Assembly (NCBI GenBank): GCA_947085855.1
Contig: CAMTYB010000001.1
Coordinates: forward strand, 341,788 to 405,787
Source of the DNA: an uncultured Candidatus Saccharibacteria bacterium
GTDB lineage: Bacteria > Patescibacteriota > Saccharimonadia > Saccharimonadales > 2-12-FULL-41-12
Direction of reading: 5' to 3'
Length of the DNA stretch: 64,000 nucleotides
This document shows, in pieces, positions 23,055 through 41,030 of the stretch (positions are counted from its first letter, which is position 1; each line of letters begins with the position of its first letter). The notes beneath the pieces are model-generated. The model was not told where the DNA came from. It saw nothing but the letters and a program-made list of their open reading frames with translations, and did no database searches. The position numbers and the translations under genes were made by a program.

Positions 23055-23132
23055 GGGCTCGTAGTGAAGTTGGCCCATCACGCCTCCCTGTCACGGAGGA
23101 GATCGCCGGTTCGAATCCGGTCGGGCCCGCCA
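23055..23132 (+). tRNA. tRNA-Asp(GTC)
   Basis: GGGCTCG TA GTGA AGTTGGCCCA TCAC G CCTCC CTGTCAC GGAGG AGATC GCCGG TTCGAAT CCGGT CGGGCCC G CCA. Confidence 0.95.
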
Positions 23133-24181: not shown

Positions 24182-26374
24182 GTGGTTGTCCGATTACCTA
24201 TCCCTGGCAGTGATGATGGCTCTTGGGGTGACATACTTAATACATTTCTGGCACAAGAGCACAATAGTGACGGCTCCCTCAAGCTTCGCTCCGATGGCAC
24301 ACTGAGTGCCAAGCAGTCAGTTAGTGAAAAGGGCCAAGCCGATGGCTATGCCCCACTTGGCAGTGACGGTAAAGTACCCAGTAGTTACATACCAGCCAGT
24401 GGCAGTGTGCCAGATGCTGACGCCAGCACTAAGGGTGTTATTCAGCTTGCTGGTGACCTAGGTGGAACGGCTGCTAGCCCAACTGTAACCGGCCTGGCTG
24501 CTAAGGCCGAAGATGTGTCGGTCGTCCACAAAGGCAGCACCGAGACCATTTCTGGTGATAAAAACTTCACGGGCGCTCTAACCAAGAGCGGCAATAACGT
24601 TATCGTCGAAGGTGACTCTCGTTTAACAGATCAGAGGACGCCAAGCGATAACTCTGTTTCGACTGCCAAAATACAAAATGCTGCAGTTACAAGTCAAAAA
24701 ATATCTACTACCGGTGTTTCTGACGGCCAAGCGTTTGTACTATCCAGCTCGAACTGGGCGCCAACTTCCGTTGTTGCCACTTCCCTCGTTGGTGCGACTG
24801 ATGGCGTAGCCTCGCTGGGCAGTGACGGCAAAGTGCCAGCAGGCCAATTGCCTTCCGGCCTCACTCTGCCGACTCAAACTGGCAATACTGGTCGCACACT
24901 GGTAACCGACGGTACCAATGCTTCGTGGGCTCGCGGCGTCGTCGATGCCACACTGCCACCCTACAATATGTCACCGTCAAATACGGCGGCGCAGAATGTT
25001 ACCGCCCTCAATGCAGCAATCGCAGCAGTTTGGAATTTTGGTAGCGGCTGGGGTGCCGTATATATCCCTGGTGGCGCCAGCATTAACTACAACCTCAATG
25101 CTGGCATCAGTATCCCCAAGACCGTATCACTCTTTACTGATGCAGAGTGGGGTGCAGCCCTAACCTGGACCACCGATACCGGTGGCGGTACATTCGGATT
25201 CCAACTTGGTACGACGAGTGGCGTAAGCATCGAAATGCCAACAATCAACGGTTTTAAGCTGGTCGGCCCGGGCAATCAGGGCGCTGCTTTAGGTGTTGCG
25301 CCATGTGCCATGGGCGCTATTCGTGCATGCGATAACGCCAGAGTGTTGAATTGCACCATGGTTGGTTGGCGCATGGGCGTATCGTTCATGGGCAATCACC
25401 AAAAGGTCGCCTACTGCCGTGTTGAGCATTGCTACTACGGTGTTTGGTGGTCCGATGGCGCTACTACTTTTTCTGACCAAAGTATTACCCACACCGAGCT
25501 TGTCGGCCAAAAATTTGCATCTGTGGCGGTAGCCGGTGATAGCACTATCGACACCTCTATGTTCGACAAAGTTCATATGGGTTTTTCGCCCTATGGAATC
25601 TATAAAGAGTCCGGCGGCAGCTTCCGCAAAACCGAGATAGCCAATAATACGTCGTTCATTGACTGCTCAATTGAAGCTGTAGGTAACGGCATGATTTATG
25701 ATGAAGCTGACGATTCGCAAGTTCGCGGCTGCCAGTTTATTGGCGGTTACACATATATTATGAATGCTACGTATAAGATTGCTGCTCGCAATGCAGATTA
25801 TTTGGTTCGCTGTAATTATTTTGGGGACAACGTCATGATGGGCTATCGCACCTTCTCTACTCCAGCCGACCTTGGCTTTTTTGACTGCAATTCTATTCGC
25901 AACTGTAAACACACTGATGGCTGGGCGCTGATCTCTGGTATCACCACATCAAAACCAGTGGCTGCTTCAACTAATGATGTCCTCGGTTTCCAAATATTTG
26001 GAGCTAACGGTCAGGAATGTGATGTCATGAAAGTCGCTATCAATGACCAAGCAGCTAACGATCTTTTATTTGCCACTCCAAGCCAAGGCAACGCCGCCTC
26101 CACCGCCAATTTAGGTGCTGGCGGATCCGATATACCAGTCGGCATTCTACAGGCCGCAGCCAACTCTGGTAACTGGGGAGTTGTCGCCAAAAGTGGTCGT
26201 GTCACCGCCAAAAATGTCACAGCCATTACTGGCACTACCTATGTAAAAGCCGACACCTCCAATCGGGGTTCAATCGTCACAGCAACTGCAGGTGATACGA
26301 TGATCGTCGGCTACGCCAACGGCAACGGCGCCGGTAACAGCACCCAAACTGTCTACCTCCAAGGCCTCGCTTAG
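24182..26374 (+). CDS. phage-tail-fibre-like surface protein with probable beta-helix (pectate-lyase-like) C-terminal domain
   Basis: 730 aa, GTG start after AAGGAG. N-terminal RLPIPGSDDGSWGDILNTFL..HNSDGSLK. Tail-fibre motifs APLGSDGKVPSSYIP and TKGVIQLAGDLGGTAASPTV. The C-terminal half resembles a parallel beta-helix. Confidence 0.8.
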   Translation: MVVRLPIPGSDDGSWGDILNTFLAQEHNSDGSLKLRSDGTLSAKQSVSEKGQADGYAPLGSDGKVPSSYIPASGSVPDADASTKGVIQLAGDLGGTAASPTVTGLAAKAEDVSVVHKGSTETISGDKNFTGALTKSGNNVIVEGDSRLTDQRTPSDNSVSTAKIQNAAVTSQKISTTGVSDGQAFVLSSSNWAPTSVVATSLVGATDGVASLGSDGKVPAGQLPSGLTLPTQTGNTGRTLVTDGTNASWARGVVDATLPPYNMSPSNTAAQNVTALNAAIAAVWNFGSGWGAVYIPGGASINYNLNAGISIPKTVSLFTDAEWGAALTWTTDTGGGTFGFQLGTTSGVSIEMPTINGFKLVGPGNQGAALGVAPCAMGAIRACDNARVLNCTMVGWRMGVSFMGNHQKVAYCRVEHCYYGVWWSDGATTFSDQSITHTELVGQKFASVAVAGDSTIDTSMFDKVHMGFSPYGIYKESGGSFRKTEIANNTSFIDCSIEAVGNGMIYDEADDSQVRGCQFIGGYTYIMNATYKIAARNADYLVRCNYFGDNVMMGYRTFSTPADLGFFDCNSIRNCKHTDGWALISGITTSKPVAASTNDVLGFQIFGANGQECDVMKVAINDQAANDLLFATPSQGNAASTANLGAGGSDIPVGILQAAANSGNWGVVAKSGRVTAKNVTAITGTTYVKADTSNRGSIVTATAGDTMIVGYANGNGAGNSTQTVYLQGLA

Positions 26375-27556: not shown

Positions 27557-28813
27557 TTGACCAAACGAGCAGTACATGGTATTTTGAGGTTTACTATGAA
27601 TGCCTCTCGCCTCCAGCAAATTGGCGATTACGAACAAGCCCCGTGGCTCACTGCTGCTATAGATCCAGAACTAAAAACCGTCGAAGAGCGAGTAGCTACC
27701 CTTGTTAATGAGCAGACCGAGCAGTGGGATCGTCACGAAGAACTTGGTAGTTACTATTGGAGTGGCGGCACTCCGCATATAGCACTTGAGGGTGAATCAG
27801 AGCTCGGCAACGAAGAAACTCACCACTCCTTTGAATGGGATCGTCCCGACACACGAACGCTTACCTCTATCATTTTGCGTCGTCCGGTTACGTACTCAAA
27901 TGAAAAAGCAGCCGAAGGCCGCGTACTAGCTCATGTTCAAGGCCATGCGCGCATTGTCGAACAACGACCCGGCCTGCAGTACTTTGCAAGCGACGATGGA
28001 TACATTATCTCACCGGAATTCGACACAATTACCCCTATATCGGATGAGCGCTTCGAGGTCTCACGCGATGGTCAAACCAGAGTCCTAAAGCTACTCTCCG
28101 CTGACGAGCAGGCTGAAGTCCTCGAACGACGTGCTCAGCTAGAAGCCAAGCAAGCCGACTACGATTATCAAGAGCTCGAACAATTGCAGTATCAGGCTGC
28201 TCTTGGCACGCTTGCTCTATATGGAATCGAGTTGGATCCAGATGAGAATACGTACAACCCGCATACTGGCTTTCAGATCTTTCGCTTTGAGCATGCCAAC
28301 CGCGCCGTTAGGCTCGATGTTGGCCGCAACGCCCTAACAGCCAGTTGCTGGGCCAAGCATCTTTCTTTTGAAAAAAGACAAGAACTGTGGGACGCCTATG
28401 AACATGGCATCCAACCAATGCACAATGACCTATCGGGCGAGCGAGATGCCTTTGATCGAGCACCAACAGACGGACAACCGGTCGCCGGTGAAGCCGAGAT
28501 TGATAGCACCGACATGGCATATCATGCCTTTTTGGTGGCAACTCATGGACTATTGAAAAACAATGACTTCCGACCTTTCCGCATCGAAACGCCACACGCG
28601 AGCTGGTCCATACCCATGGCGTTGAAAATCATTGAACTACCATTCGATCGAGCGCATTGCATTATTAGCCCTGTAGGTGGTGTTGGTTCCCGCGGTCACC
28701 TGATCCAAGATCGTCCTGGCAGCTTTAGGTCTGCTCATCCAGACAGTGGAGATATAAGTAGATATCCCGTCTGGTCGGTTGACGATGATAACACCTTAGC
28801 GCGCATAAACTAA
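27557..28813 (+). CDS. hypothetical protein
   Basis: 418-aa ORF with no motif. An ATG near 27596 (MNASRLQQ) is an alternative start. Confidence 0.55.
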   Translation: MTKRAVHGILRFTMNASRLQQIGDYEQAPWLTAAIDPELKTVEERVATLVNEQTEQWDRHEELGSYYWSGGTPHIALEGESELGNEETHHSFEWDRPDTRTLTSIILRRPVTYSNEKAAEGRVLAHVQGHARIVEQRPGLQYFASDDGYIISPEFDTITPISDERFEVSRDGQTRVLKLLSADEQAEVLERRAQLEAKQADYDYQELEQLQYQAALGTLALYGIELDPDENTYNPHTGFQIFRFEHANRAVRLDVGRNALTASCWAKHLSFEKRQELWDAYEHGIQPMHNDLSGERDAFDRAPTDGQPVAGEAEIDSTDMAYHAFLVATHGLLKNNDFRPFRIETPHASWSIPMALKIIELPFDRAHCIISPVGGVGSRGHLIQDRPGSFRSAHPDSGDISRYPVWSVDDDNTLARIN

Positions 28814-28905
28814 ATACGAGTGTAATAAACATCGCTGCGCTTATGCTTGCATCTTAACTATGCTTTGTAGAGAATACACTATGTATATATGACAGGAGTT
28901 TACAC

Positions 28906-30075
28906 ATGAATCCAGCCATTGCCGAACAATCACTGACTGCCGCAATTGAATCCGCAGAGCTAACCAGACCACTTCCCGACCTAGAAGAAGCTCGTAATAC
29001 CTACGTTAATGCAGCCAATCGATCTCAGTTATTCGGCTACTTACCCGGCCAAAAGCATCGCTTAGACAGTGCTGAGTTCACCTACCAAATGGCTTGGGAA
29101 GCCGATTTGCGCGAACGACTCGAAAACACCCAACTTGAGGGCAAGTCACTTTATTTTGATATGCATCATGCCATTTCGGCTGAAAATCAATACCGGGCCA
29201 GTGCCGAGCAGGATGACATGCGGCAACGAAAATATGCTCGCTTCCTCCTTCGCTATAACGAACTCCATTGGGCCAAAAAACTTGGTATTGGTGTTGTCCT
29301 CGGTGGTGCCAGCGCAGCCTCTATGGCTGTCACCGGTGGAGCCGCTGTGGCAGTCGGCGCCAGCTTAGCTGTACGCTTTGGCTCTATCCACACTAATCGC
29401 GAAGCCCGACGGCTTAAAGCCTGCATCCCTAACAATGGTCAGCAACGTCATGACTTTATGGTTGCTGGCCTACCCGAACAAGCTACTCCCGAGAAACTCC
29501 AAAGCTGGCTTGGGCATGTAGTTTCTAAAAATCTAGCCGAATATAACGTAGCTAGCGAAGCTAAGAAGGCCCGGCGGTCAATTTTGTTTTCAATAGGTGG
29601 AATCGCACTTGGAAGAGGCCTCGCTGAAGCCGCAAGTCTGGTTGCCAATAAACCGACAACTGCTAAGCTCCAGAACAGTTTGAAAGATAAACTATTGCCG
29701 AGCCGGATCGCCAAGGTGACAGCAGAAACACCGCCAAGCACACCCAAGTCTTCTCCTCAATTAGCCAGCGAATCACCCATACAGCGCAAGTGGCGCACTA
29801 TTAAGGAGGCACCGAAGCAACTCTGGGTCCGTGAAAATCGCCAGGGCGACTATCGTTTCTTTGCCAACAAGCGATTCAATAATGTTTGGGACATTTCTAA
29901 GCAAGCTTTACGGCTCAATGGAGACAAAAAACCAAGCGCGCAGCAAATTACAGACCTCAAGAACGCAGTCGTCGACCAACGACTACAAAACGGCAAATCG
30001 AGCATGCTCGATACAGGCGAACGCGTAAGTGTTTCTCGTCGCCTCATCAACCGGGTTCTAGCTCGCAACTCTTAA
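28906..30075 (+). CDS. hypothetical membrane-associated protein
   Basis: 389 aa, ACAGGAG SD upstream, Gly/Ala-rich hydrophobic segments in the middle. Confidence 0.55.
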   Translation: MNPAIAEQSLTAAIESAELTRPLPDLEEARNTYVNAANRSQLFGYLPGQKHRLDSAEFTYQMAWEADLRERLENTQLEGKSLYFDMHHAISAENQYRASAEQDDMRQRKYARFLLRYNELHWAKKLGIGVVLGGASAASMAVTGGAAVAVGASLAVRFGSIHTNREARRLKACIPNNGQQRHDFMVAGLPEQATPEKLQSWLGHVVSKNLAEYNVASEAKKARRSILFSIGGIALGRGLAEAASLVANKPTTAKLQNSLKDKLLPSRIAKVTAETPPSTPKSSPQLASESPIQRKWRTIKEAPKQLWVRENRQGDYRFFANKRFNNVWDISKQALRLNGDKKPSAQQITDLKNAVVDQRLQNGKSSMLDTGERVSVSRRLINRVLARNS

Positions 30076-30133
30076 AATCTGTGTAAAAGTGGTTTGGCTT
30101 TGTGGGAAGTAAGCTATACTTGTCATAAAGCTA

Positions 30134-31498
30134 GTGTATAAAGGGAAAAATATGAGACCCGACGAAGATCAAAGTCGTCAGCAGCTGTCCCGCTCCGGAC
30201 CAGCCACCATTCAACCAATATCACGTGACGTGGCGCCCGCACCAAGTGCTGGCCCGACATTTTCGGAGTTCACTCGACCAGATCAGCCAGTGGCTGCACC
30301 ATCTCCAGAGCCTACGCCTCCGCCCACATCACCCGATCCATACGAGCGGCCAGCAACGCCACCGCCTGCGCCACAACCGCAACCCTTAGCTCCTCCGACA
30401 CCACCTGTGATGCCTGCACCAGAGCCACTACAACCACAAACTCCGGCAGCACCAGTCGTACCTCCTGCAAATCCTATCTATCCGCAGCCACAATCAACTG
30501 TTCCACCAGTGTTTTCAGCTACTCCTGCAGCTCAACCACCTCACAAAGAAAGTGCTGACGCTAGTCTGATTGTATTGCAATGGCTTACCTACGCTTTCTG
30601 GGGCTGGGCGGTTCTTTCGCTATCCACACTAACGACTATGGTTTTGTCGAGCTTTATTACGAAAGCCGACACCGGTAGCTTTACGCCATACGCGATTGCC
30701 GCCGTGTTAGTACTTCTACCGATTGCATTTGGCTGTGACTATTTCTACTCAAAGAAAGAACCAGAAAAGAAAACTGGTCCCGAGAATATCGTTATGATTA
30801 TTCACGCTGTTATATTTGCGCTGTGCGCCATTGGCTCGCTTATTTTGGCAGTTTTCTTCTTGGTCCAAATCTTTACGAGCAGTAGCGCCGATAACAGTGG
30901 CGCCCAGGTAGGCTTATACAGTTCGCTTATTATTGCCGTTTACTATGTATTGACCTTCTTACGAACCTTAAATCCAGCCAAGTTACCATGGATACAGCGA
31001 TCATATAAGTTCATTATGCTGATTACCATTGGTATTATTGCTATCTTAGGAGTAGTTGGACCAGTCGCAGCCGAACGCAGCACTCGTAATGACCGCTTGA
31101 TTGATGATGGCCTGCCTCGACTTACTAACACAATCAACGATTATGCTGAAGATAATAAGAAATTACCGGCATCACTTTCTGATGTTAAGACAACCGGCGA
31201 AGCCCAAAAGTTAATAGATGACAATCTTGTACAATACAAGGCAGTTGATACGGGTCAGATTTCGGCCACTCAAGCAACTGGCGCTAACAGGTCGCTATCG
31301 GCTCGAGGCTCATCGGCCTTTCGCTATGAGCTGTGTGTGACATACAAGGAAAAGAGTCGGTCATACGACAAGTACAACTCAACCAGTCGCTACTCAGATA
31401 GCGAGGGTTATACAGAATATATCAATAGCTCAGCTCACCCGGCTGGCAATGTTTGCTATAAGCTCAAAGCCGTCGTTTATGACAGCTCCATCAATTAG
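30134..31498 (+). CDS. proline-rich polytopic membrane protein
   Basis: 454 aa with an N-terminal ~130-aa Pro-rich region, 5-6 TM segments and a C-terminal soluble domain with 2 Cys. An ATG at 30152 is an alternative start. Confidence 0.6.
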   Translation: MYKGKNMRPDEDQSRQQLSRSGPATIQPISRDVAPAPSAGPTFSEFTRPDQPVAAPSPEPTPPPTSPDPYERPATPPPAPQPQPLAPPTPPVMPAPEPLQPQTPAAPVVPPANPIYPQPQSTVPPVFSATPAAQPPHKESADASLIVLQWLTYAFWGWAVLSLSTLTTMVLSSFITKADTGSFTPYAIAAVLVLLPIAFGCDYFYSKKEPEKKTGPENIVMIIHAVIFALCAIGSLILAVFFLVQIFTSSSADNSGAQVGLYSSLIIAVYYVLTFLRTLNPAKLPWIQRSYKFIMLITIGIIAILGVVGPVAAERSTRNDRLIDDGLPRLTNTINDYAEDNKKLPASLSDVKTTGEAQKLIDDNLVQYKAVDTGQISATQATGANRSLSARGSSAFRYELCVTYKEKSRSYDKYNSTSRYSDSEGYTEYINSSAHPAGNVCYKLKAVVYDSSIN

Positions 31499-34252
31499 TT
31501 ACTGGACAATAAAGTAATCGTAGACATAGGTAGTACTAGCTGCCGGTGTATCGACTGTCCTAAAAGTGACTCCTGAGCTACTGGTAGCACCTCGCGAGAC
31601 GCGCATTTGAGATGACGCATCATTAGCCGGAGTAATTGAGACTCGAGGAGGAGCACCGTAGGCTTGATTGAAGTTTAGAACGAGCAGATCTCCGGTTGAA
31701 GGAGTCGAACCAGTCACTAAGGTTATCGTACCGGCCACATCGTTACCATTTACAGAGGCCGTGGCACCTGATCCAGCTGCTGCCAACGCCTGCACTACCG
31801 GCAAATTACCAGAAGTGATGATATGTCCAGCCACCTCTAACTGAGTAGTCTTGATGGTGGCTGCCTGGAGTGTCCCGCTAACGACCACATCACCACTAAC
31901 CACAATACTATTGAAATTAGCAGCCTGCTGAATAGCATCACCGACCGTGGCCGATGACGTACCAACACTTGCCTTGACCAGCTTAACGCCTGGGTTACTG
32001 TTAGTCTCTTGGGCAATGGCTATTTTAGCGAGGATATCACCAACAGTGGCACTACTGGCGCTAACAGCTCGAGCCGTACCATCGCCATTACTGACCATGA
32101 TGTCTCCAACCACCACTGGACCGGTCACCCGAACTGGCACCTGGCCAGCGAAGGTAACGAGCAGGGCTTCATCTTCACTAAAGACATCGTTACCTACAAA
32201 GGCAGCCGTATCCTTGGAGGAAACTACGTAATTACTGCCATCGTAGGTCACGATGCTGCCGGTTACCGGCTTTACACCGCTCCACGGAATCCACTCGGCG
32301 TAGTCGGCGCCACTGGCGTTGATGCTACCAGCAGCGTTAATTGATCGACTTGTACCACTGTCACGACCAACATACAGCGTGGCTGCGGCGGCATTAAAGT
32401 CCGATACAACGTTGTCAGTACTAACCCGTAAAGCATTACTGCCCGAAGCATCCTGAACCAAGAAAGCGTTATTCGAATTGGTTGTATTCTGGAAGGTCGT
32501 AGCCGACACAATTGGTGCGCCAAAACTAATCTCACCGGCCGCATAGTTGGTGACGTTGCTGCCAAGCTCCAATTGGATGCCATCAACGTAGAATGTATGG
32601 GCCGAACCTTGATTAATCACAATATATATACCGGTCGAGGGCGTCATAGTAGCAAAGCTCGTAAACGTACAAGTAACACGCTGCCAACTACTGTTAATCG
32701 CCACACCACTGGCACAGTTATGTACGTCAGTGGCGCTCGCCCGGTACCAACCATATGAGATTGAGATACCTGGATCGTCGGTCCGTACATAGAATGACAT
32801 CGAGTACGCGGTACTAGAGGCTAAGGTTCGATTCTGGCGAATACCTTGCCCAGAAAAAGTTGTCGATACCTGAGCAGACGCCGATCCAAATTGATGATGC
32901 GTTGTGTTCTGACTGATTGACCCGCCGATCAACATATTAGTCCAGTTGCCCGTGTTTTGCTCAAAACTGGGGTTGAGGATCATATTGTTTGATCCAAGTG
33001 TAGAAATATTGAAAAGTGATGTATTATCGGTGTTTCTGATCTGGAAAGTCGATGACGAGTCTTCGACCGGCCGGAAAACTGCAGCCCCGGTGTTACCGAT
33101 TGAGAACAGGTTGTTGGCACTGGCACTACCGTCTTTCACTTGAAAAATGTCGGCCGATTGACTGGCGTTACCACGAATGACTGCAGTTACATCGGCCGCA
33201 TTCGCGCTCTGCACATTAATATTAGCCGACTGAGTAGTCGTCGTGTTGAGAATAAAGTTTACACCAGATACATCGTCACAGACTGACAGCTGCGACGATC
33301 CATTGGTACAAACGAGCTCTGTGCCCCCAGAACCAAGGGTGCCGACGGTAGTCGTGCCACCAACCTGCAAATCACCAGTTACGGCCAGAGTGCCAGAAAA
33401 TGTCGGACTATCAGTAATTGTGATGCCATTACACGTGCCGCCCGTATTGAGCTGCAAGGTGTTACCACCACCGGTCAAGTTACCACTGCCAGCCGGACAC
33501 GTTAGATTAGCCGTCTGCGTGGGCTGCTCTTGCGGGCTCGTAGCCGAAAAGGCTGCAAATTGACTGGTAATAACCTGTTGTAGATAGCTCGCCGAAACAT
33601 CGAGCTGTCCGTTGACCAACTCTAGGCTCGGCCCCAGTGTAACGTTGCCGCTCGCACCACCGATGGTAGCCACAAACGGTGGCAAGGCGGTCGGGCCAAG
33701 ACTTATGAACTGATTTCCGTTGTAGTAATATGGCACGCTTGTAGTTTTATCGAAGAAGAACTGCCCCACTACAGGATTCTCCGGCTGAGCACTTGGATAC
33801 AAGACGAGCGTATTACCGACCTGGAGTTGCCCGTTAATGAGTAAATATTCGGCCTTTTGCAGCTGCACCGAAGTTCCGCCCGGTAATTGTTCTACTTTGA
33901 GGTCACCAACTGAGTAATTTTCGCTGGTTTTACTGCTTGATTCAGGAGAAATACCCTGTTTATCTTTGTTGTTCAGTAATAATCCCAAGACAATCAAGCC
34001 ACCGATAGCGATCACGACTGCAGCAATCAGTGTGATAATAAAAGCACCCTTGTTGTACTGGAATAAACTTGGGCGCTTAAAAATACCGTGTGTATGGGGC
34101 GGCGAACTTGGGTCACCACCGGGTTGGGCAATTTGTTGTTCAGGCTGCAGTGAGTTTTGGGTCACCTGGACAGTTGGTGTTTCCGACTCAAGCTCTAACC
34201 CTTGTGGGTTAAGCATTGGGTTGTCTTCACGACTGTTCGGATTATTTTCCAT
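31499..34252 (-). CDS. membrane-anchored tail-fibre-like protein with CBM4/9-like domain and peptidase-G2-like autoproteolysis motif
   Basis: 917 aa with an N-terminal TM anchor. Contains FFFDKTTSVPYYYNGNQF, a CBM-like region (NPSFEQNTGNW...YVDGIQLE, 32558-32986) and ASGADYAEWIPW (32291-32311). Confidence 0.8.
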   Translation of the reverse strand: MENNPNSREDNPMLNPQGLELESETPTVQVTQNSLQPEQQIAQPGGDPSSPPHTHGIFKRPSLFQYNKGAFIITLIAAVVIAIGGLIVLGLLLNNKDKQGISPESSSKTSENYSVGDLKVEQLPGGTSVQLQKAEYLLINGQLQVGNTLVLYPSAQPENPVVGQFFFDKTTSVPYYYNGNQFISLGPTALPPFVATIGGASGNVTLGPSLELVNGQLDVSASYLQQVITSQFAAFSATSPQEQPTQTANLTCPAGSGNLTGGGNTLQLNTGGTCNGITITDSPTFSGTLAVTGDLQVGGTTTVGTLGSGGTELVCTNGSSQLSVCDDVSGVNFILNTTTTQSANINVQSANAADVTAVIRGNASQSADIFQVKDGSASANNLFSIGNTGAAVFRPVEDSSSTFQIRNTDNTSLFNISTLGSNNMILNPSFEQNTGNWTNMLIGGSISQNTTHHQFGSASAQVSTTFSGQGIRQNRTLASSTAYSMSFYVRTDDPGISISYGWYRASATDVHNCASGVAINSSWQRVTCTFTSFATMTPSTGIYIVINQGSAHTFYVDGIQLELGSNVTNYAAGEISFGAPIVSATTFQNTTNSNNAFLVQDASGSNALRVSTDNVVSDFNAAAATLYVGRDSGTSRSINAAGSINASGADYAEWIPWSGVKPVTGSIVTYDGSNYVVSSKDTAAFVGNDVFSEDEALLVTFAGQVPVRVTGPVVVGDIMVSNGDGTARAVSASSATVGDILAKIAIAQETNSNPGVKLVKASVGTSSATVGDAIQQAANFNSIVVSGDVVVSGTLQAATIKTTQLEVAGHIITSGNLPVVQALAAAGSGATASVNGNDVAGTITLVTGSTPSTGDLLVLNFNQAYGAPPRVSITPANDASSQMRVSRGATSSSGVTFRTVDTPAASTTYVYDYFIVQ

Positions 34253-34422: not shown

Positions 34423-35256
34423 CTAGTGTAAAAGCCAGTAAATTATAGCGCCACCAAAACCAACCATAACAAAGGCCAGGAACAATACCCCACCAAGCGC
34501 CCGCAAGATTGACTGCTTGGCGTACGGGTTACGCCCAACAGATATAATACTGCCGTAAACAGAAGCGTACGTCAGCGCAATAAGTGCCACAATTATGACG
34601 AGGGCAATGATTATGCTGAGAACAATACGATACGTCGCCACTGTACGACCAGTGATAGACTTAGTTACTTTCTGTAAGTAATTGAGATTAGCGTCATCGT
34701 CTTGAGCAATTACCGTGCCGGCCGATAAATTCAACTGAATCGTGCCCACCTTTACCTGCTTACTAGCTCCGGACTTCTCTGTTACCTGGGCAGTTGTAGC
34801 CTGACCACTGTCGCCATTAAAGTCGTTCTGAGCAACCCCTACCACCCGTCCACCGGGCGCAGCCTTCATACCAACACCGTTAAAGGGTGAAATAACTACC
34901 TGGTCCCCAGCTTTAATGTCGCCATTTACATCACTCACCAGCACGGTGGCCGTGCCATTGGTGACAATGTGAACCGCGCCACTATCTGGATCGACCGACA
35001 GCAAGGTGTCCTGCGGATCAACGGCAACACCTGCGAACTGAGTGGCGTTGTCTGTGTTGGCTAAAATCACATTGTTTTCTTTGGACGTATCAAAGCTAAC
35101 AATACTGCCCTTGCTAATAGTCTGGTTGGATTGATATGAGCTCGCAATTTCAGCCGCGTGGACAGAATAAAACGTAGCAAGCATAACAACAATAAAAAAT
35201 GTCGCAAGTACCATGCGTGCTACCGACTGTTTTACTATTCGCGTATATATATACAT
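34423..35256 (-). CDS. hypothetical secreted/membrane protein
   Basis: 277 aa with a signal anchor, a beta-rich ectodomain and two C-terminal TM segments (VGRNPYAKQ between them). Confidence 0.6.
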   Translation of the reverse strand: MYIYTRIVKQSVARMVLATFFIVVMLATFYSVHAAEIASSYQSNQTISKGSIVSFDTSKENNVILANTDNATQFAGVAVDPQDTLLSVDPDSGAVHIVTNGTATVLVSDVNGDIKAGDQVVISPFNGVGMKAAPGGRVVGVAQNDFNGDSGQATTAQVTEKSGASKQVKVGTIQLNLSAGTVIAQDDDANLNYLQKVTKSITGRTVATYRIVLSIIIALVIIVALIALTYASVYGSIISVGRNPYAKQSILRALGGVLFLAFVMVGFGGAIIYWLLH

Positions 35257-35454: not shown

Positions 35455-35487
35455 GGCACACTACCCCTGTTACCGGACTAGTGTGCC
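35455..35487. repeat. solo GGCACACTA...TAGTGTGCC hairpin overlapping the tatC stop codon
   Basis: 9-bp stem (35455-35463 pairs with 35479-35487). Same GGCACAC/GTGTGCC core as the MITE-like family. Confidence 0.45.
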
Positions 35488-36566
35488 AGTATAATATCCG
35501 ACACCAAACGTGGTGCCGCAGTTTGGGGTTTAACAGCAGAGCGAACAGGAATTCGTTGCACGGCTGGCTGCCTTGAAGTTCTTGCTTGTTGCGGTAATGG
35601 CCGCTTTACTACTACATCCATCGCCCTTCGAGCATTGGCTTGGGTTTGTGGCTGTTGCTGCTGCACTTGCTGAACCTGGGAACTTGGGATGATGATCGGC
35701 TGAGCTGGCTGTCGCTGGTGTAGCTGAGCAATAAAGCCGCCAAGTTGCTGAAACAATTTTTTATCCATTGCTTCTTTGTGGACTTCGGCCTGTAGTCGCG
35801 ATTGTTCACGCTGCTGGGCTTTGGCTATTTTAAGTTGCTTGCGTCGCTCTTTGCGGTTAACTCGCCAGACCAATAAAACACCGACTTGATACAACACGAT
35901 AGCAGGTGCTGCCATAAGGAATTGGTTGAATGGGTCTGGTGTTGGCGTCAGAATAGCCGCCCCTATAAAGCTCCCAAGGATTATGTATCGCTGAGCTCCC
36001 ATCATGCCACCAGGCTTAAGCGGTTTGATGCGATTAATGAACAGGACATACAACGGCAGCTGGAATACCAGTGCAAAGCTAATAATGTAACTGAGTGCAA
36101 AATTGTAATAGGAATCGATCGTTATGAGCGATTGAACATTGCCATCGCCAAACGTTGACAAGAAGTGTAATGAAGCCGGCAAGCTGACCATATAGGCAAA
36201 GGCAACTCCAGCGTATGCCAAAATTACTGAAGCGGCCGTGTAGCGAATGACGGCACCACGACGTCTATTCGTCATGAGTGGTTCTAGGAATTTGTAGGCG
36301 TTATATAAAATAACTGGGGTGGCGATAACCACACCAGCTGCAAAACATAGCTTGAATAATGAAGTGAATCCACCGGCCGGTGACGTGTAATACAACGTCT
36401 GGCCAAGTGGCTTTTGAACTAACGCAAGGAGGGGTTCATGGAATTTGTAGGCAATACCCGCACCGGCAAGTATGGCGACAAAAATAACCATGAGTCGCAA
36501 TTGCAACTCATGTACGTGCTCCATGAACGGCTTCGTTTTAGCGCCGCCTGCAGCACCACCAGCCAT
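35478..36566 (-). CDS. tatC: twin-arginine translocase subunit TatC with ~110-aa Gln/Arg-rich C-terminal extension
   Basis: 362 aa. N-terminal MEHVHELQLRLM... and six TM segments typical of TatC. The tail after ~aa 250 is low-complexity. Confidence 0.9.
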   Translation of the reverse strand: MAGGAAGGAKTKPFMEHVHELQLRLMVIFVAILAGAGIAYKFHEPLLALVQKPLGQTLYYTSPAGGFTSLFKLCFAAGVVIATPVILYNAYKFLEPLMTNRRRGAVIRYTAASVILAYAGVAFAYMVSLPASLHFLSTFGDGNVQSLITIDSYYNFALSYIISFALVFQLPLYVLFINRIKPLKPGGMMGAQRYIILGSFIGAAILTPTPDPFNQFLMAAPAIVLYQVGVLLVWRVNRKERRKQLKIAKAQQREQSRLQAEVHKEAMDKKLFQQLGGFIAQLHQRQPAQPIIIPSSQVQQVQQQQPQTQANARRAMDVVVKRPLPQQARTSRQPAVQRIPVRSAVKPQTAAPRLVSDIILAH

Positions 36567-36838: not shown

Positions 36839-37144
36839 TTAGCGTTGTTCTTGCGTAGGCTCTGGTGTATCATCGTCACCGCTTGTAGGTGACGACGGAT
36901 CTTTCTTTTCCACTGATCCCGCCTGATTATTTTTCTTCTTGTTGTGCAATTTTCTTGCTAACAAGTACGTAGCCACCAAAAGAAGTAGGATCCCGATGAT
37001 AACACCTATTAAAGCTCCTGTGCCGGTATCTGACAAGGACCCGGCGGCCCCACCTGTACTACAGTCGTTATAGTCTGAACTACCATAATTTCCACACCCA
37101 TATTGGGCAATGATCCAGCTGTAGATATAGGAGGCTACATACAT
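36839..37144 (-). CDS. small membrane protein with LSDTG-TM-basic segment
   Basis: 101 aa. LSDTG is followed by a TM segment and RKLHNKKK, which is sorting-signal-like but not C-terminal. Confidence 0.5.
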   Translation of the reverse strand: MYVASYIYSWIIAQYGCGNYGSSDYNDCSTGGAAGSLSDTGTGALIGVIIGILLLLVATYLLARKLHNKKKNNQAGSVEKKDPSSPTSGDDDTPEPTQEQR

Positions 37145-37151
37145 GTGTTAC

Positions 37152-37334
37152 CTACTTGCCGTACGGATTGCCGCCGTAGCCAGCGCCACGCTTGGCACCG
37201 CTAAAGAGCTGCTCTAGATTCTTGATGACAGCTGTAACACCTACTGCGCCAAGCAGACCTATGCCTACATACTGCAGGAACTCCTTGCGGTCCATCTCTT
37301 TTTCTAGAATTGGTTTAAGTGGATTATTTATCAT
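37152..37334 (-). CDS. small protein with Tat-signal-like N-terminus (DRKEFLQ + hydrophobic core)
   Basis: 60 aa, MDRKEFLQYVGIGLLGAVGVTAV. Located two genes upstream of tatA. Confidence 0.5.
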   Translation of the reverse strand: MINNPLKPILEKEMDRKEFLQYVGIGLLGAVGVTAVIKNLEQLFSGAKRGAGYGGNPYGK

Positions 37335-37455
37335 AATAGATTCGCTTTTATATATTCTTTTGTTTTTGTTAATTCCCTGACATCAGTGTATATCATAAGC
37401 GCAAACAGTTACAAGTCTTTTTTCAAGCCAGTGCCTTAATAATATGTATATATTT

Positions 37456-37559
37456 GGGGCCACATTTAAAAAGACACACTCGGTGTGCTGTAGATAAAGA
37501 TTTTAAGGTGTTAAATTATGTCGTATGGCACACGGGGTGTGCCCTTTTCAATACCGTCC
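37456..37559. repeat. palindromic MITE/REP-like element, copy C (core inverted)
   Basis: GACACAC TCG GTGTGCT and GGCACAC GGG GTGTGCC hairpins. The core TTAAGGTGTTAA is the reverse complement of the core in copies A and B. Confidence 0.7.
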
Positions 37560-37697
37560 GGCACCAAGTGCACCAAGCGTTTCAACTGACAGCTGATCAG
37601 CCAAATAGATATACCCAACACCGATAGCCAGCAGCGCCAACAATAACATTGTCACGAGCCACCGCTGTAGCATTTGTTTACGAGCTCTATGTCTCAT
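37548..37697 (-). CDS. small membrane protein (49 aa), translationally coupled to sortase
   Basis: Its ATG overlaps the sortase TGA (ATGA). Translates MRHRARKQMLQRWLVTMLLLALLAIGVGYIYLADQL... with one TM segment. Below the track cutoff. Confidence 0.35.
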   Translation of the reverse strand: MRHRARKQMLQRWLVTMLLLALLAIGVGYIYLADQLSVETLGALGAGRY

Positions 37698-38284
37698 GGC
37701 GTGTCTCCTGTCGGCTTAGCAATAATCACTAGTCGATCTTTTGGATTCCAAACCGGTGTACAGGTATACAGGGTTAGCTGGGCAGTATCGGTTGGCGCTT
37801 CAACTTCTTTGTTGTCGGCTTTGACCACCTTGGTTTCGGCAACCTGATAATAATAAGCCTTGCCATGCCAATAAACTGCAAAAGTATCGCCAATCTTTAA
37901 CTTATCGAGGTTATAGAAGACTGCTTTGCTGCGATACGTAAAACGGTGGCCAGCGATGACGGTATTACCCTCATCTAGAGGCGTACTGGTGTACGGTTTG
38001 CGCCATGGACCATCGTTTACCGTTGTTTCGGCCTTACCCTCTCGGATTGCTTCATCGACGAAGATTTGAGGAATAACCAGGCGATTGTCTTTTGGAATGT
38101 CATTAGGTGGTGTAGTTTTAGTGGCTGCTCCCGTTACATAGGCAGGTTGACTCGGCGGAAATTTTTTCTGGAGATGAAATGATAAGAATGGCCAAGCCGT
38201 ATATATCAGAATACCTATCCCTAGTACTAAAACGAGGACGGTAAGGACGGTATTAAGCCGGTCATGCCATTGAGCTGCTGACAC
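37694..38284 (-). CDS. sortase (class E-like)
   Basis: 196 aa with an N-terminal TM segment, catalytic His (IAGHRFTY) and LTLYTCTP (TLxTC). Confidence 0.85.
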   Translation of the reverse strand: MSAAQWHDRLNTVLTVLVLVLGIGILIYTAWPFLSFHLQKKFPPSQPAYVTGAATKTTPPNDIPKDNRLVIPQIFVDEAIREGKAETTVNDGPWRKPYTSTPLDEGNTVIAGHRFTYRSKAVFYNLDKLKIGDTFAVYWHGKAYYYQVAETKVVKADNKEVEAPTDTAQLTLYTCTPVWNPKDRLVIIAKPTGDTP

Positions 38285-38301
38285 GCTAACTCCTCTGGTA
38301 T

Positions 38302-38757
38302 TTAAAGATCAAGTGACTTGTCATCAAGCGAGCTACTTGGGAAATCTTCTTCATCGTTGAGCGTGCTGAGGTCTTGGCTAATCGCGTTGTTAGCTTGTTC
38401 AATGTCAATTGGCTGAGCTGGTTGCAATAACAACGCCTGTGGATTAGTAGTCGTCTGGGTGGCCGGTTGTTTAGTGGTCGATTCTCCACCACCCAACAAC
38501 ACTACTGCTACTGTGAGAATTAAAATTGCACTAATACCAACTGCAGCTGCAATCAGCGGCCCTTTCTTGGAACTCTTTACGGGCTTATGTGGCTGCTGTG
38601 GCGTTACCTGGTTTGGCGCTGGTACTGCTGGCGGCTGAGGCGGTGTGTAGGGCGCCAGGGGCTCCGAAATAGCTGAATCTTGATAGCCCGCCTGTGGATT
38701 GCCTTGGTAGTCATACGGCTGCTGAGGAGATTGATTGTCGTTTTTGTACGGATCCAT
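38302..38757 (-). CDS. Pro/Gln-rich single-pass membrane protein
   Basis: 151 aa. Confidence 0.5.
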   Translation of the reverse strand: MDPYKNDNQSPQQPYDYQGNPQAGYQDSAISEPLAPYTPPQPPAVPAPNQVTPQQPHKPVKSSKKGPLIAAAVGISAILILTVAVVLLGGGESTTKQPATQTTTNPQALLLQPAQPIDIEQANNAISQDLSTLNDEEDFPSSSLDDKSLDL

Positions 38758-39413
38758 TAGTTTGTACCTGCTTTACCCTTGAGTTCGGTGGCATGATTGG
38801 TCAGAACTGGCTTAACGTTGTTGACGACATTATTACGGGTAATTTCGGTTTGACTGCGCAACGCTTTACGATAATCCCGCGCTGTTTCCAGGAGTGATTT
38901 GAAGCCAGCTGGATCGGCTTTACAGTTTATCAAAGCCGCGTCATCTAAAACCTGTTGGTATTCTTTGGCCATGGCTTCATAGGCTGCCACATCGGCCGCC
39001 AGTGCTGCACGCTGTTTTTCTAGCTCAAACGTATCCTTATCGGCTAACTTCAGCTTGCCGACTGCAATCCATAGCTTGCCGTCAATTGACTTATAAATAC
39101 CGGTGCGCGTATCGACTACTGAGGTCGTCTTCTGCTTTAAAGTACGCAATTTGGCCTGGGCGTTGGTACATAGAGACGCTACACGTTGTTGATCACGTGC
39201 ATCAAGCGTAATTGGCTTCTCTGTCTTACGTTGAGCCACACGTTGCTCTAGAGTGGAGCCTGGCGCAGTGGCTGCTGGTGCTTTAGCCTGAGAATGCCCA
39301 ATTTGTGGCTGAGTCAATAAAACCAGTGCTGCACCCACAAAAATGGCGGCGAGCACACCCCCCGTTACAAATACCACCGATAATTGACCTTTTCCGGCCC
39401 TCAACTGCTGCAT
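38757..39413 (-). CDS. membrane-anchored coiled-coil protein
   Basis: 218 aa with an N-terminal TM segment. Its stop overlaps the next gene's start. Confidence 0.55.
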   Translation of the reverse strand: MQQLRAGKGQLSVVFVTGGVLAAIFVGAALVLLTQPQIGHSQAKAPAATAPGSTLEQRVAQRKTEKPITLDARDQQRVASLCTNAQAKLRTLKQKTTSVVDTRTGIYKSIDGKLWIAVGKLKLADKDTFELEKQRAALAADVAAYEAMAKEYQQVLDDAALINCKADPAGFKSLLETARDYRKALRSQTEITRNNVVNNVKPVLTNHATELKGKAGTN

Positions 39414-39441
39414 AGTTACTCAAATTTTAGCATAAGCTGTA

Positions 39442-40482
39442 TTAGAAGCGTAGATAGACGCGAGTTTTTTTCTGTTCTTTACGCTCATTGATGTAGTCTT
39501 TGATGTCCTTATAGTTAAAGACCATGTGAGCTGCCCGGATTTTTCCATCGGGCTGTGTTTGCAAGTTTTTTACAATTTCTATGCCATATCCCACCGGTAC
39601 CTGGCCTGAATGCTGACCATCGGTCAGCTTAAACAGCGCATCTACCACAGACGGGTCAATGTCTCGGTTCGTCTTTTCAATAGCAAAACCATACTCACCC
39701 TTGTTCGGTCGAGTGATCGGATCCTCGGAAACAGTGCTCGCTAAAGTGCCAAAGTCTGCACCGGTACTTAGTTGAGCAATTGCGCCATCGGCTCGTTCTT
39801 TGGTTTGCGTGTCATAAGTAGCCACTACTTTTTCGCGCAACAATTGGGCTTTGAGGCTGCGCTTAAAGTCCTTTTCAGACCAATTCCAAAAGTCTTTTAA
39901 GACATTTTGGAATTCTTTGTCGTTTGCTCCAAGTCGGTTCTGGTTCCGGACCACCGTGATTTCGTCATCGACTTCTCTATCTGTTACCGTGATGCCCTTG
40001 GCTTCAGCTAACTCTTTGACGTAGGCGTCATCGATCACCTTTTCCAGTGCCCGCTTCTTGAATTCAGACAACTGCTGTTTGCCGGCTTCGCTATTAAAAT
40101 CCAGACTCTGTTGTGTTCGATAATAATGCGTATAGTGATTGATTTCGAATAAATAATTTTCGTAGGCTATGAAATCTGAGCCGCTACGTGCCACCGGAAA
40201 CGGTACCACCTGGGTAACTTTATAAATAAACGTTGAAGTTGACTTGAACTTATATAGCGCCAAGGTGCAGTACGTAAAGAACACTACCAAAGCAACCAAA
40301 AATACACTCAGAGAGACAGTCACCAGACGATGCTTGGACTGCCTAAGCGGATAGATATACTTACGCGCTTGCCCTAGCACTTCTTCTCGGTGTTCGGCTA
40401 CAGTGTCATTGGTGATGCGCCCGGCCGGAGCGGGCGTTTCTGACTGTTTACGTCGGCGTAGTTTTGATCTGATTTTTTTCAT
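39442..40482 (-). CDS. membrane-anchored SurA/PrsA-like peptidyl-prolyl isomerase (parvulin-type)
   Basis: 346 aa with an N-terminal TM segment, a SurA-N-like region and a C-terminal parvulin-like segment (GEYGFAIEK...GYGIEIVK). Confidence 0.7.
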   Translation of the reverse strand: MKKIRSKLRRRKQSETPAPAGRITNDTVAEHREEVLGQARKYIYPLRQSKHRLVTVSLSVFLVALVVFFTYCTLALYKFKSTSTFIYKVTQVVPFPVARSGSDFIAYENYLFEINHYTHYYRTQQSLDFNSEAGKQQLSEFKKRALEKVIDDAYVKELAEAKGITVTDREVDDEITVVRNQNRLGANDKEFQNVLKDFWNWSEKDFKRSLKAQLLREKVVATYDTQTKERADGAIAQLSTGADFGTLASTVSEDPITRPNKGEYGFAIEKTNRDIDPSVVDALFKLTDGQHSGQVPVGYGIEIVKNLQTQPDGKIRAAHMVFNYKDIKDYINERKEQKKTRVYLRF

Positions 40483-40484
40483 AA

Positions 40485-41030
40485 CTAGGCTGCTTCCGCC
40501 TCCTCTTCGATGTCGTCTTCCGATACCATCGGTGGCGGGCTATTTAATATTCCTTTCTCCCTCAGAATACCAAGTATTTTTTTCTGAATCGTTGCAGGGT
40601 GATGTACGTCATGGATCACTAAATCACCAACAAATGTCTGCATCATTATCGTACCATATCCAAGTAATGTTTCCTGGAATCCACCGACCTCATAATTGAC
40701 CATTTGAATCTGTGGCAAACCAATATCCACCACGCTGCGACGCCACAGCCCCTTTTGGGTAATCTGTATAAGCCGCTGATCGGTCACAATGAACACACTG
40801 TAGTACCAACCAATCCACGATGGCAGAAACAACAGAAAGCTCAAAATAAAACCGGCCGCCAGCCCACCAAACAGATAAGCATACTCGGGCTTTATCAAAG
40901 AAGGAAGTGTGCCAAGCAAAATCGCCAGCATAGAAATAACCAACCCTTTGCGCATCACAATCGGGTGTTTACGAAAGACGAACAATACCTCTTCGTCGTC
41001 TAGCTGATCATCAAAATATTTGTCTGGCAT
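40485..41030 (-). CDS. bacterial PH-domain (bPH_2/YdbT-like) membrane protein
   Basis: 181 aa. DEEVLFVFRKHPIVM, two TM segments, then a PH-like domain. Confidence 0.65.
   Translation of the reverse strand: MPDKYFDDQLDDEEVLFVFRKHPIVMRKGLVISMLAILLGTLPSLIKPEYAYLFGGLAAGFILSFLLFLPSWIGWYYSVFIVTDQRLIQITQKGLWRRSVVDIGLPQIQMVNYEVGGFQETLLGYGTIMMQTFVGDLVIHDVHHPATIQKKILGILREKGILNSPPPMVSEDDIEEEAEAA

Follow-up and report, generated by a model that had tools for sequence, protein, structure and literature searches.

Among the described proteins closest to the one considered here is gp12 of phage phi29 (MEROPS G2/PF11962; PDB codes 3GQ7, 3GQH, and 3SUC), which reads GGNTWS691|D692FAEYFE across its cleavage site and whose mature form, gp12*, has been modelled as residues 1-691 (PMC6542822). 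Domain D4 of the marine podovirus tail-spike Dpo31 (PDB codes 28nb/28lx) is trimeric alone and is cleaved off on expression (PMC13317679). Intramolecular chaperones (IMC) of the Peptidase_S74 or endosialidase type (K1F endoNF, T5 pb1, and the GA-1 appendage) are C-terminal trimerisation chaperones that self-cleave after assembly (PMC4690869), and a phage S74 IMC has been co-opted into the eukaryotic membrane-anchored cellular protein MyRF (PMC8326128). The C-terminal domain of the P22 tailspike nucleates trimer folding of this beta-structured adhesin (PMC3357383). The subject of this report is a gene in a 64,000-nucleotide stretch of DNA (the window) from contig CAMTYB010000001.1 of an uncultured Candidatus Saccharibacteria bacterium, an open reading frame (ORF) at 31499-34252 on the minus strand that starts with ATG and encodes 917 amino acids. 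Like other Patescibacteria, Saccharibacteria spend their lives attached to host bacteria, and genetic studies show that "multiple adhesins" are required for this epibiotic growth (PMC10633639). The product of this ORF is, on balance, interpreted as a type II membrane-anchored, probably homotrimeric surface fibre that is made of phage receptor-binding modules and would self-cleave at A649|D650, an interpretation held with slightly better than even confidence over the whole chain of inference.

The GADYAEW motif of the fibre (residues 648-654; 32291-32311, minus strand) contains the predicted scissile bond A649|D650. The fibre residues A649|D650-Y-A-E653 correspond to gp12 S691|D692-F-A-E695, with PDB chain 3gqh starting at DFAEY, and Asp-650 is also aligned with Asp-664 of Dpo31 D4. 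The codons of Asp-650 and Glu-653 are at 32303-32305 and 32294-32296. The first-pass annotation of this DNA had matched GADYAEW to the site at which Peptidase_G2/phi29 appendage proteins are cleaved, and this match proves correct at the residue level; the ORF and motif coordinates given there are reproduced on recomputation. Upstream of the bond is a conserved pre-cleavage strand (residues 620-649; 32306-32395, minus strand), ending in LYVGRDSGTSRSINAAGSINASGA, in which alignment A1 has near-invariant Arg-636, Ser-637, Ile-638, Asn-639, Ala-640, Gly-642, and residues Asn-645 to Ala-649. Residues 618-658 match phrog_34132 with E 4e-8.

The D-[YF]-A-E motif is invariant in 19 cellular relatives that have 33-60% identity to the fibre protein, 18 of which carry both this module and the terminal domain described below. 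In these 19 proteins the block at residues 640-659 is the most conserved of the C-terminal third, with an identity to the fibre residue of 0.73-0.78, followed by a second conserved block, FAGQVPVRV (residues 701-709), at 0.73, and the remainder of the C-terminal third has values of 0.23-0.56. This conservation argues that in the cellular proteins the motif is under constraint for its chemistry and not for the fold only. The 20-residue block G[ST][IVL]NASGADYAE[YW] is almost unchanged in about 120 database proteins, a count that is enriched since the homology search is seeded on shared words.

The Pfam Peptidase_G2 model (PF11962) has a gathering cut-off of 25 bits. No Peptidase_G2 match is reported for the full-length fibre protein, and isolated C-terminal segments score 19.1, 18.9, and 20.7 bits (E 3e-4 to 1e-3) over residues 633-687. 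Four relatives with the same architecture of G2 module and terminal domain pass the cut-off (P0230 at 43.1, P0265 at 38.2, P0273 at 33.7, and P0209 at 27.7 bits), and these have 33-49% identity to residues 587-917 of the fibre (E 1e-31 to 4e-75). The closest, P0209, is a transmembrane (TM)-anchored protein of 3,452 amino acids of the DYAEWIPWSG subtype (49% identity over residues 587-917, E 4e-75) that also has the N-terminal anchor region in common with the fibre. In total PF11962 matches 10 of the 127 members of alignment A1, the best with E 9.7e-9. The first-pass annotation had named the Pfam CBM_4_9 and Peptidase_G2 models as one check on its reading, to be given up if neither was significant and cleavage was not seen; CBM_4_9 passes its cut-off in the fibre itself and Peptidase_G2 passes in the relatives.

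Sequence searches of the PDB with the whole fibre protein and with its C-terminal third find nothing. The 127-sequence profile run against every PDB sequence gives two matches only, with E 0.16 for Dpo31 D4 (28nb) and E 0.84 for the C-terminal fragment of gp12 (3gqh). Each of the two alignments begins at the cleavage aspartate (DYAEY and DFAEY, where the fragments start) and is collinear up to the GQ.PV.V strand. In a comparison by hhalign of the trimmed family alignment with the single gp12 C-terminal sequence only the GQ.PV.V strand is aligned (probability 21%), because a large insertion in gp12 breaks the single-sequence comparison. Peptidase_S74 (PF13884) does not match the C-terminal third at E <= 10. 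We conclude that the GADYAEW module belongs to the G2 IMC superfamily, in which it is divergent and barely within reach of the Pfam model.

The AlphaFold2 (AF2) model of residues 586-917 has a mean predicted local distance difference test (pLDDT) score of 79.9 with a confident barrel at residues ~651-765 (pLDDT > 90 for model residues ~66-180), and the pre-cleavage strand has low pLDDT in this monomer model. The predicted beta barrel constitutes the body of the Peptidase_G2-like chaperone (residues 650-775; 31928-32305, minus strand), an assignment drawn from AF2, Foldseek, BFVD, and the sub-threshold PF11962 scores. In a Foldseek search of the PDB with the model, 3gqh_A (prob 0.99) and 3suc (prob 0.96) are among weak matches, and in BFVD there are 23 matches at E <= 1e-3 (best 2.3e-8), including entries named "Preneck appendage protein" and "Preneck appendage protein barrel," the latter with E 5.6e-5 and a root-mean-square deviation of 3.4 Å over 136 columns.

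The best PDB matches of the barrel in Foldseek are trimeric capsid cement or decoration proteins (cyanophage Pam3 8hdt_G, HFTV1 8qsy, Sf11 9ocb, and T1 9kzj), and gp8.5, the base of the phi29 head fibre (6qyy), is also matched; these cement and gp8.5 matches have E 5e-3 to 7e-2 and stand beside gp12. The cement-protein and gp12 matches belong to the G2-like barrel, since they are absent from a fold search with the terminal domain only. The comparison of models hints at a fold common to G2 chaperone barrels and capsid decoration proteins. Marseillevirus proteins also match the barrel in BFVD (A0A481YT87 with E 4.3e-5, A0A481Z0X9, and A0A481YZS4, a "putative tail fiber protein"), and therefore the G2-like module, as judged from predicted structures, extends to eukaryotic giant viruses.

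The first-pass annotation had suggested that the C-terminal ~260 residues as a whole would be the chaperone. This stands for residues ~620-775 only, which are G2-like, and residues ~806-917 are instead an independent terminal domain. From Asp-650 on, the fibre protein has 268 residues compared with 136-179 in nearly all of the phage-type members. The barrel is followed by a linker (residues 776-805; 31838-31927, minus strand) with pLDDT 53-76 and a length that varies among relatives, and then by a predicted terminal beta-sandwich (residues ~806-917; 31502-31837, minus strand) defined by alignment A2 and AF2 with the pattern GHIITsG...GNDxxGTITxxTG...YxFDYFIxQ. Modelled alone, the terminal domain has a pLDDT of 87 and a predicted template modelling score of 0.77. 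It has no match in Pfam, NCBIfam, or PHROG and no significant match among PDB folds; its weak fold likenesses are to the C-terminal domains of tailspikes (Sf6, Pam1, and phi297), R-pyocin fibre tips, Helix pomatia agglutinin, and the diphtheria-toxin R domain.

A homology search gave no match for the terminal domain, and in its place an exhaustive search was made in which a hidden Markov model (HMM) built from the 13 domains of alignment A2, scoring the fibre protein itself at 150 bits, was run against 1.84 billion representative proteins. At E <= 1e-3 the HMM finds 7,288 clusters (50% identity representatives), of which 3,389 reach E <= 1e-10. The domain is placed at the extreme C terminus in all of the 150 best matches, in proteins of up to 3,834 amino acids, and a TM segment is present within the first 200 residues in 70 of 87 full-length relatives of >= 500 residues. 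A G2 motif 268-332 residues from the end is seen in 9 of 145 new terminal-domain representatives, and ~94% of the family attach the terminal domain straight to the shaft. The two modules also occur apart, the terminal domain without the G2 module in P0006, P0008, P0009, and P0011-P0015, and the G2 module without the terminal domain in P0003, P0018, and the phage proteins. The distance from the aspartate to the C terminus is 267-332 residues in all but one of the 19 cellular relatives above; the exception is P0003 (168 residues), which has no terminal domain. The terminal domain is an independent, uncatalogued family, mostly in proteins without a G2 module, and the fibre belongs to an unnamed family of Patescibacterial TM-anchored giant surface proteins that share this terminal beta-sandwich.

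Ahead of the cleavage site is a carbohydrate-binding module (CBM) at residues 422-565 (32558-32989, minus strand; Pfam envelope residues 422-533). The gathering cut-off of Pfam CBM_4_9 (PF02018) is 25.9 bits, and the whole fibre protein scores 26.6 bits (E 8.8e-6), rising to 31.3 bits (E 3e-7) for the isolated residues 405-600, which cover profile positions 1-119 of 136. The homologue P0005 scores 35.4 bits. The CBM4/9 pattern read by eye in the first-pass annotation is borne out by these scores, and residues 422-565 are assigned to CBM_4_9 at the level of the sequence family. The same region matches phrog_5499, "host range and adsorption protein," with E 2.8e-7. On recomputation NPSFE lies at residues 427-431 and YVDG at residues 555-558 (32579-32590). 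The domain placed just ahead of G2 differs among relatives: L002 and L003 have a region homologous to the fibre CBM, L005 has Kelch-like repeats, and L006 has an LVIVD propeller, and these are putative binding domains. The arrangement resembles a "[binding domain]-[IMC]" cassette of phage style that would have been grafted ahead of the terminal domain of the family.

A homology search with residues 600-814 returns 140 proteins, nearly all with G[ST][IVL]NASGADYAE[YW], and most of these are ~350 residues long with the chain ending 136-155 residues past the aspartate. Relatives of this ~350-residue type are encoded at 161 viral loci of IMG/VR, searched with the single protein P0034 as query. The N-terminal parts of the ~350-residue proteins match PHROG tail-fibre families, and P0024 matches "pre-neck appendage protein." These relatives point to the G2-like module being of phage origin. 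No close relative is found in cultured phages, as a tblastn search of 50,697 phage genomes with the module gives no match. An Elusimicrobia metagenome-assembled genome (MAG), JACRER010000016.1, has a 463-codon frame open at its 5' end (L007:9035-10423), in which an apparent signal peptide comes after the first methionine, at codon 45. The NASGADYAEWIPW module, with 51% identity to the fibre, is C-terminal in this frame and ends 117 residues past the aspartate. The L007 product is a cellular-looking protein of the "WIPW" subtype outside Patescibacteria.

The N-terminal half of the fibre protein contains the anchor and the stalk. Sequence and hydropathy assign a Pro/Gln/Glu-rich N-terminal cytoplasmic tail (residues 1-65; 34058-34252, minus strand) on the 5' side of the sole TM segment, which is a single helix or signal anchor (residues 66-96; 33965-34057, minus strand) with a Kyte-Doolittle mean of up to 3.04. 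This one strong hydrophobic segment confirms the N-terminal TM anchor proposed in the first-pass annotation. Lys and Arg residues just ahead of the helix suggest an N-in topology, and no obvious signal-peptidase site is seen. The anchor is followed by a conserved stalk-base module (residues ~120-186; 33695-33895, minus strand) with a single FFFDKTTSVPYYYNG motif, common to the homologues P0004, P0006, P0008, P0009, P0011, P0012, P0014, L002, L005, and L006, of which residues 155-184 match phrog_20787, "virion structural protein," with E 8e-5. The stretch FFFDKTTSVPYYYNGNQF lies at residues 165-182 (33707-33760 on recomputation). The "fibre-like repeats" previously read in this region are not found, as FFFDK...YYYNG is present once and a BLAST comparison of the protein with itself reveals no internal repeat. 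The TM anchor and stalk base are kept across Saccharibacteria relatives of 1,445-3,452 residues. Between the stalk base and the CBM is a Ser/Thr/Gly/Asn-rich shaft (residues 187-421; 32990-33694, minus strand), recognized by its composition and by a partial likeness to the shafts of P0010, P0013, and P0015; a Pfam search with it gives no match and no family is assigned. The fibre has no LPXTG-type C terminus, its chain ending in YDYFIVQ, and no paralogue in the window, where both family HMMs match this ORF only.

The window is bacterial chromosome, with an RNase P RNA, five tRNAs, TatC at 35478-36566, and a sortase at 37694-38284, and because of these the fibre gene is a cellular chromosomal gene and not a prophage tail fibre. 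The same follows from the relatives. In a scan of one genome per GTDB species these are restricted to Candidatus Saccharibacteria/Saccharimonadales MAGs and the one Elusimicrobia MAG; the upstream partner gene is kept in L002 and L006; and the N-terminal TM segment is present in most of the full-length relatives. No capsid, terminase, portal, or integrase is recognized among the 10 neighbours scanned. A housekeeping-sized neighbour gene at 19663-21249 has 64% identity to a Saccharimonadales locus, and from such relatives the organism would be a Saccharibacteria-like member of the Patescibacteria. The gene of the relative P0013 adjoins those for IF-2 and ribosomal protein S1. The next gene upstream of the fibre gene (34423-35256, minus strand) encodes a 277-residue membrane protein with N- and C-terminal TM segments, in which a TM or signal segment at the N terminus precedes a ~170-residue ectodomain and 2-3 C-terminal TM helices. 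It is also found directly upstream of the fibre in L002 and L006 (28-31% identity, E 1e-21 to 1e-23) and is not in this position in L005 or L089, so that only some members of the clade have it as a conserved partner. It weakly matches phrog_563, "virion structural protein" (E 3e-3). A likeness of its ectodomain to a G2 barrel noted by eye is rejected (BLASTP E 1.6, hhalign probability 0.3%).

The convergent neighbour described in the first-pass annotation is present at 30134-31498 (plus strand) with abutting stop codons and a 0-nucleotide spacer, and this arrangement of the two genes recurs in L001. Its product of 454 residues has a Pro-rich region of the first ~140 residues, at least three TM segments (residues ~181-314), and a soluble C-terminal domain, and has no match in Pfam and PHROG searches. 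Further away, 24182-26374 (plus strand) encodes a 730-residue protein without a TM segment, the first ~230 residues of which match minor-tail-protein PHROGs (phrog_8780 with E 1.5e-12 and phrog_2012 with E 4.9e-11), with sub-threshold Pfam matches to DUF5907 and BppL_N. This gene, just downstream of a tRNA-Asp (23055-23132), opens a block without family matches (27557-31498), and the GC content is ~0.50 over 24-34 kb compared with 0.45-0.48 in much of the window. Here the window may encode another surface or secreted protein derived from phage, or may retain the remnant of an island. On the other side of the fibre gene, just beyond TatC, a run of small single-TM proteins of 101-346 residues around the sortase (36839-41030, minus strand) may be a surface-protein or pilus assembly cluster.

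From these features we infer trimerisation, cleavage, the fate of the fragments, and host binding of the fibre. By analogy with phi29 gp12 and Dpo31, the chain would be inserted as a type II membrane protein and exported, and the IMC barrel would trimerise and template the folding of the upstream beta-structured shaft and CBM. Self-cleavage between Ala-649 and Asp-650 through the conserved Asp-650/Glu-653 pair would then give two products. The first would be a membrane-anchored fibre of 67.5 kDa that carries the CBM as the globular domain at its far end and has the pre-cleavage strand (residues 620-649) as its new C terminus, and the second a 27.0-kDa fragment of IMC and terminal domain that would be shed or held non-covalently. 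The mature fibre would most plausibly bind polysaccharide on the envelope of the host bacterium.

Several points weigh against this self-cleaving fibre. The catalytic roles of the Asp and Glu (Asp-650 and Glu-653 in the fibre) are presumed, following MEROPS G2 and Xiang 2009. The AF2 models are of monomers only, the fibre protein itself is under the PF11962 cut-off (20.7 versus 25 bits), the E-values of the PDB profile matches are weak, and the tblastn search of phage genomes gives no match to the module. ATP should be absent outside the cell, so none would be available for a gp12-like release, and release of the gp12 chaperone is reportedly ATP-dependent, as Xiang et al. are said to have described in 2009. 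The gp12 chaperone has an ATP-binding site (PMC13317679). Furthermore, the module is internal in the fibre and C-terminal in every characterised G2 IMC, and cleavage would presumably discard a terminal domain that ~94% of the family keep. Some of these points would be accommodated if the G2-like module were an uncleaved structural or trimerisation domain, a permanent autochaperone, with the terminal beta-sandwich staying as the distal tip. Such an arrangement fits a module that lies inside the chain ahead of a domain that most family members join directly to the shaft, a match below the Pfam cut-off, and an extracytoplasmic site that would lack the ATP for release; the P22 tailspike keeps its autochaperone domain in this way (PMC4690869, PMC3357383). 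It is nevertheless unlikely, if the least so of the alternatives, as the invariance of D-[YF]-A-E with the preceding NASGA, the most conserved block in the 19 cellular proteins, is hard to explain by fold alone and both characterised homologues, gp12 and Dpo31, cleave.

The conserved cleavage motif and the conserved terminal domain would be reconciled if the chain were cut at A649|D650 and the parts stayed joined non-covalently, forming a pre-nicked joint as in the SEA/GAIN autoproteolysis of surface proteins in eukaryotes. The roughly constant spacing of IMC and terminal domain (267-332 residues from the aspartate in 18 of 19) agrees with this, and in phi29 cleavage and release are said to be separate steps of which release needs ATP. 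The proposal rests entirely on architecture and has no precedent in the G2 family, and it is doubtful, as is its corollary, a terminal domain that would keep working as the tip and might come off when pulled or triggered. A shade more doubtful again is the broader proposition that a subset of Patescibacteria fibres has acquired a phage G2 chaperone between the binding and terminal domains and uses it as an extracellular, ATP-free break-away joint. If true, the epibiont would be able to let go of its host, or to release a lectin-like tip, when required, and a self-cleaving module from viruses would have a new role in the attachment of one cell to another. By far the least probable explanation is that the protein belongs to the virion of a prophage, integrated or degraded, as its tail fibre, with the hydrophobic segment being incidental. 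All of the recognizable modules have phage affinities, the minor-tail-like gene at 24182-26374 is 5 kb away and next to tRNA-Asp, and GC is slightly raised over 24-34 kb; yet no phage structural or integration gene of those named above is found among the 10 scanned neighbours, the TM anchor and stalk base are kept in Saccharibacteria relatives of giant size, the recurrent neighbours include the partner gene and chromosomal genes such as TatC, P0013 lies beside IF-2 and ribosomal protein S1 genes, and the 50,697 phage genomes give no match.

The fibre gene bears on the construction of Patescibacteria adhesins in showing one class of their surface fibres to be assembled from phage receptor-binding parts, among them the phi29-type chaperone. 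No description of the fibre-CBM-G2-terminal-domain architecture is found in the Saccharibacteria literature searched. The terminal domain, present in > 7,000 protein clusters, is worth a family definition of its own. The phi29-type self-cleaving chaperone has so far been characterised only in cytoplasmically assembled virion proteins, and if the module cleaves outside the cell the G2 mechanism would be extended to a cellular protein, an ATP-free extracytoplasmic setting, and an internal chain position. Xiang et al. reportedly suggested in 2009 that bacterial adhesins might mature like gp12.

In the comparison with known systems, phi29 gp12 is like the fibre, as predicted, in having a beta-structured fibre or spike and then a beta-barrel autochaperone, which starts at D-[FY]-A-E-[YW] and has a second motif GQ(I/V)(A/P)V.V, and fold searches with the modelled barrel of the fibre give matches to gp12. 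It differs as a cytoplasmically assembled virion protein with the chaperone (163 residues) at the extreme C terminus and with a large insertion in the barrel that the fibre lacks, whereas the fibre is TM-anchored and extracytoplasmic and has ~142 more residues, the linker and terminal domain, past the module. Dpo31 D4, which starts at Asp-664 in GS|DYAEYFE, is the best PDB sequence match to the family profile; Dpo31 is, however, a phage depolymerase with D4 at its C terminus and has no TM anchor, CBM_4_9, or post-D4 domain. The nearest relatives of the module outside the candidate phyla radiation are the ~350-residue tail fibres of uncultured phages (phrog_34132 type; L008-L087) with 30-45% identity, which share the G[ST][IVL]NASGADYAEY block and, unlike the fibre, lack a TM anchor and end 136-155 residues past the aspartate. 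The P22 tailspike autochaperone is not cleaved and has no detected sequence or fold similarity to the fibre. The S74 IMC differs from G2 in its Ser/Lys dyad and its helical, tentacled chaperone (PMC4690869). MyRF is a precedent for a phage IMC in a cellular membrane protein, but one of the unrelated S74 type.

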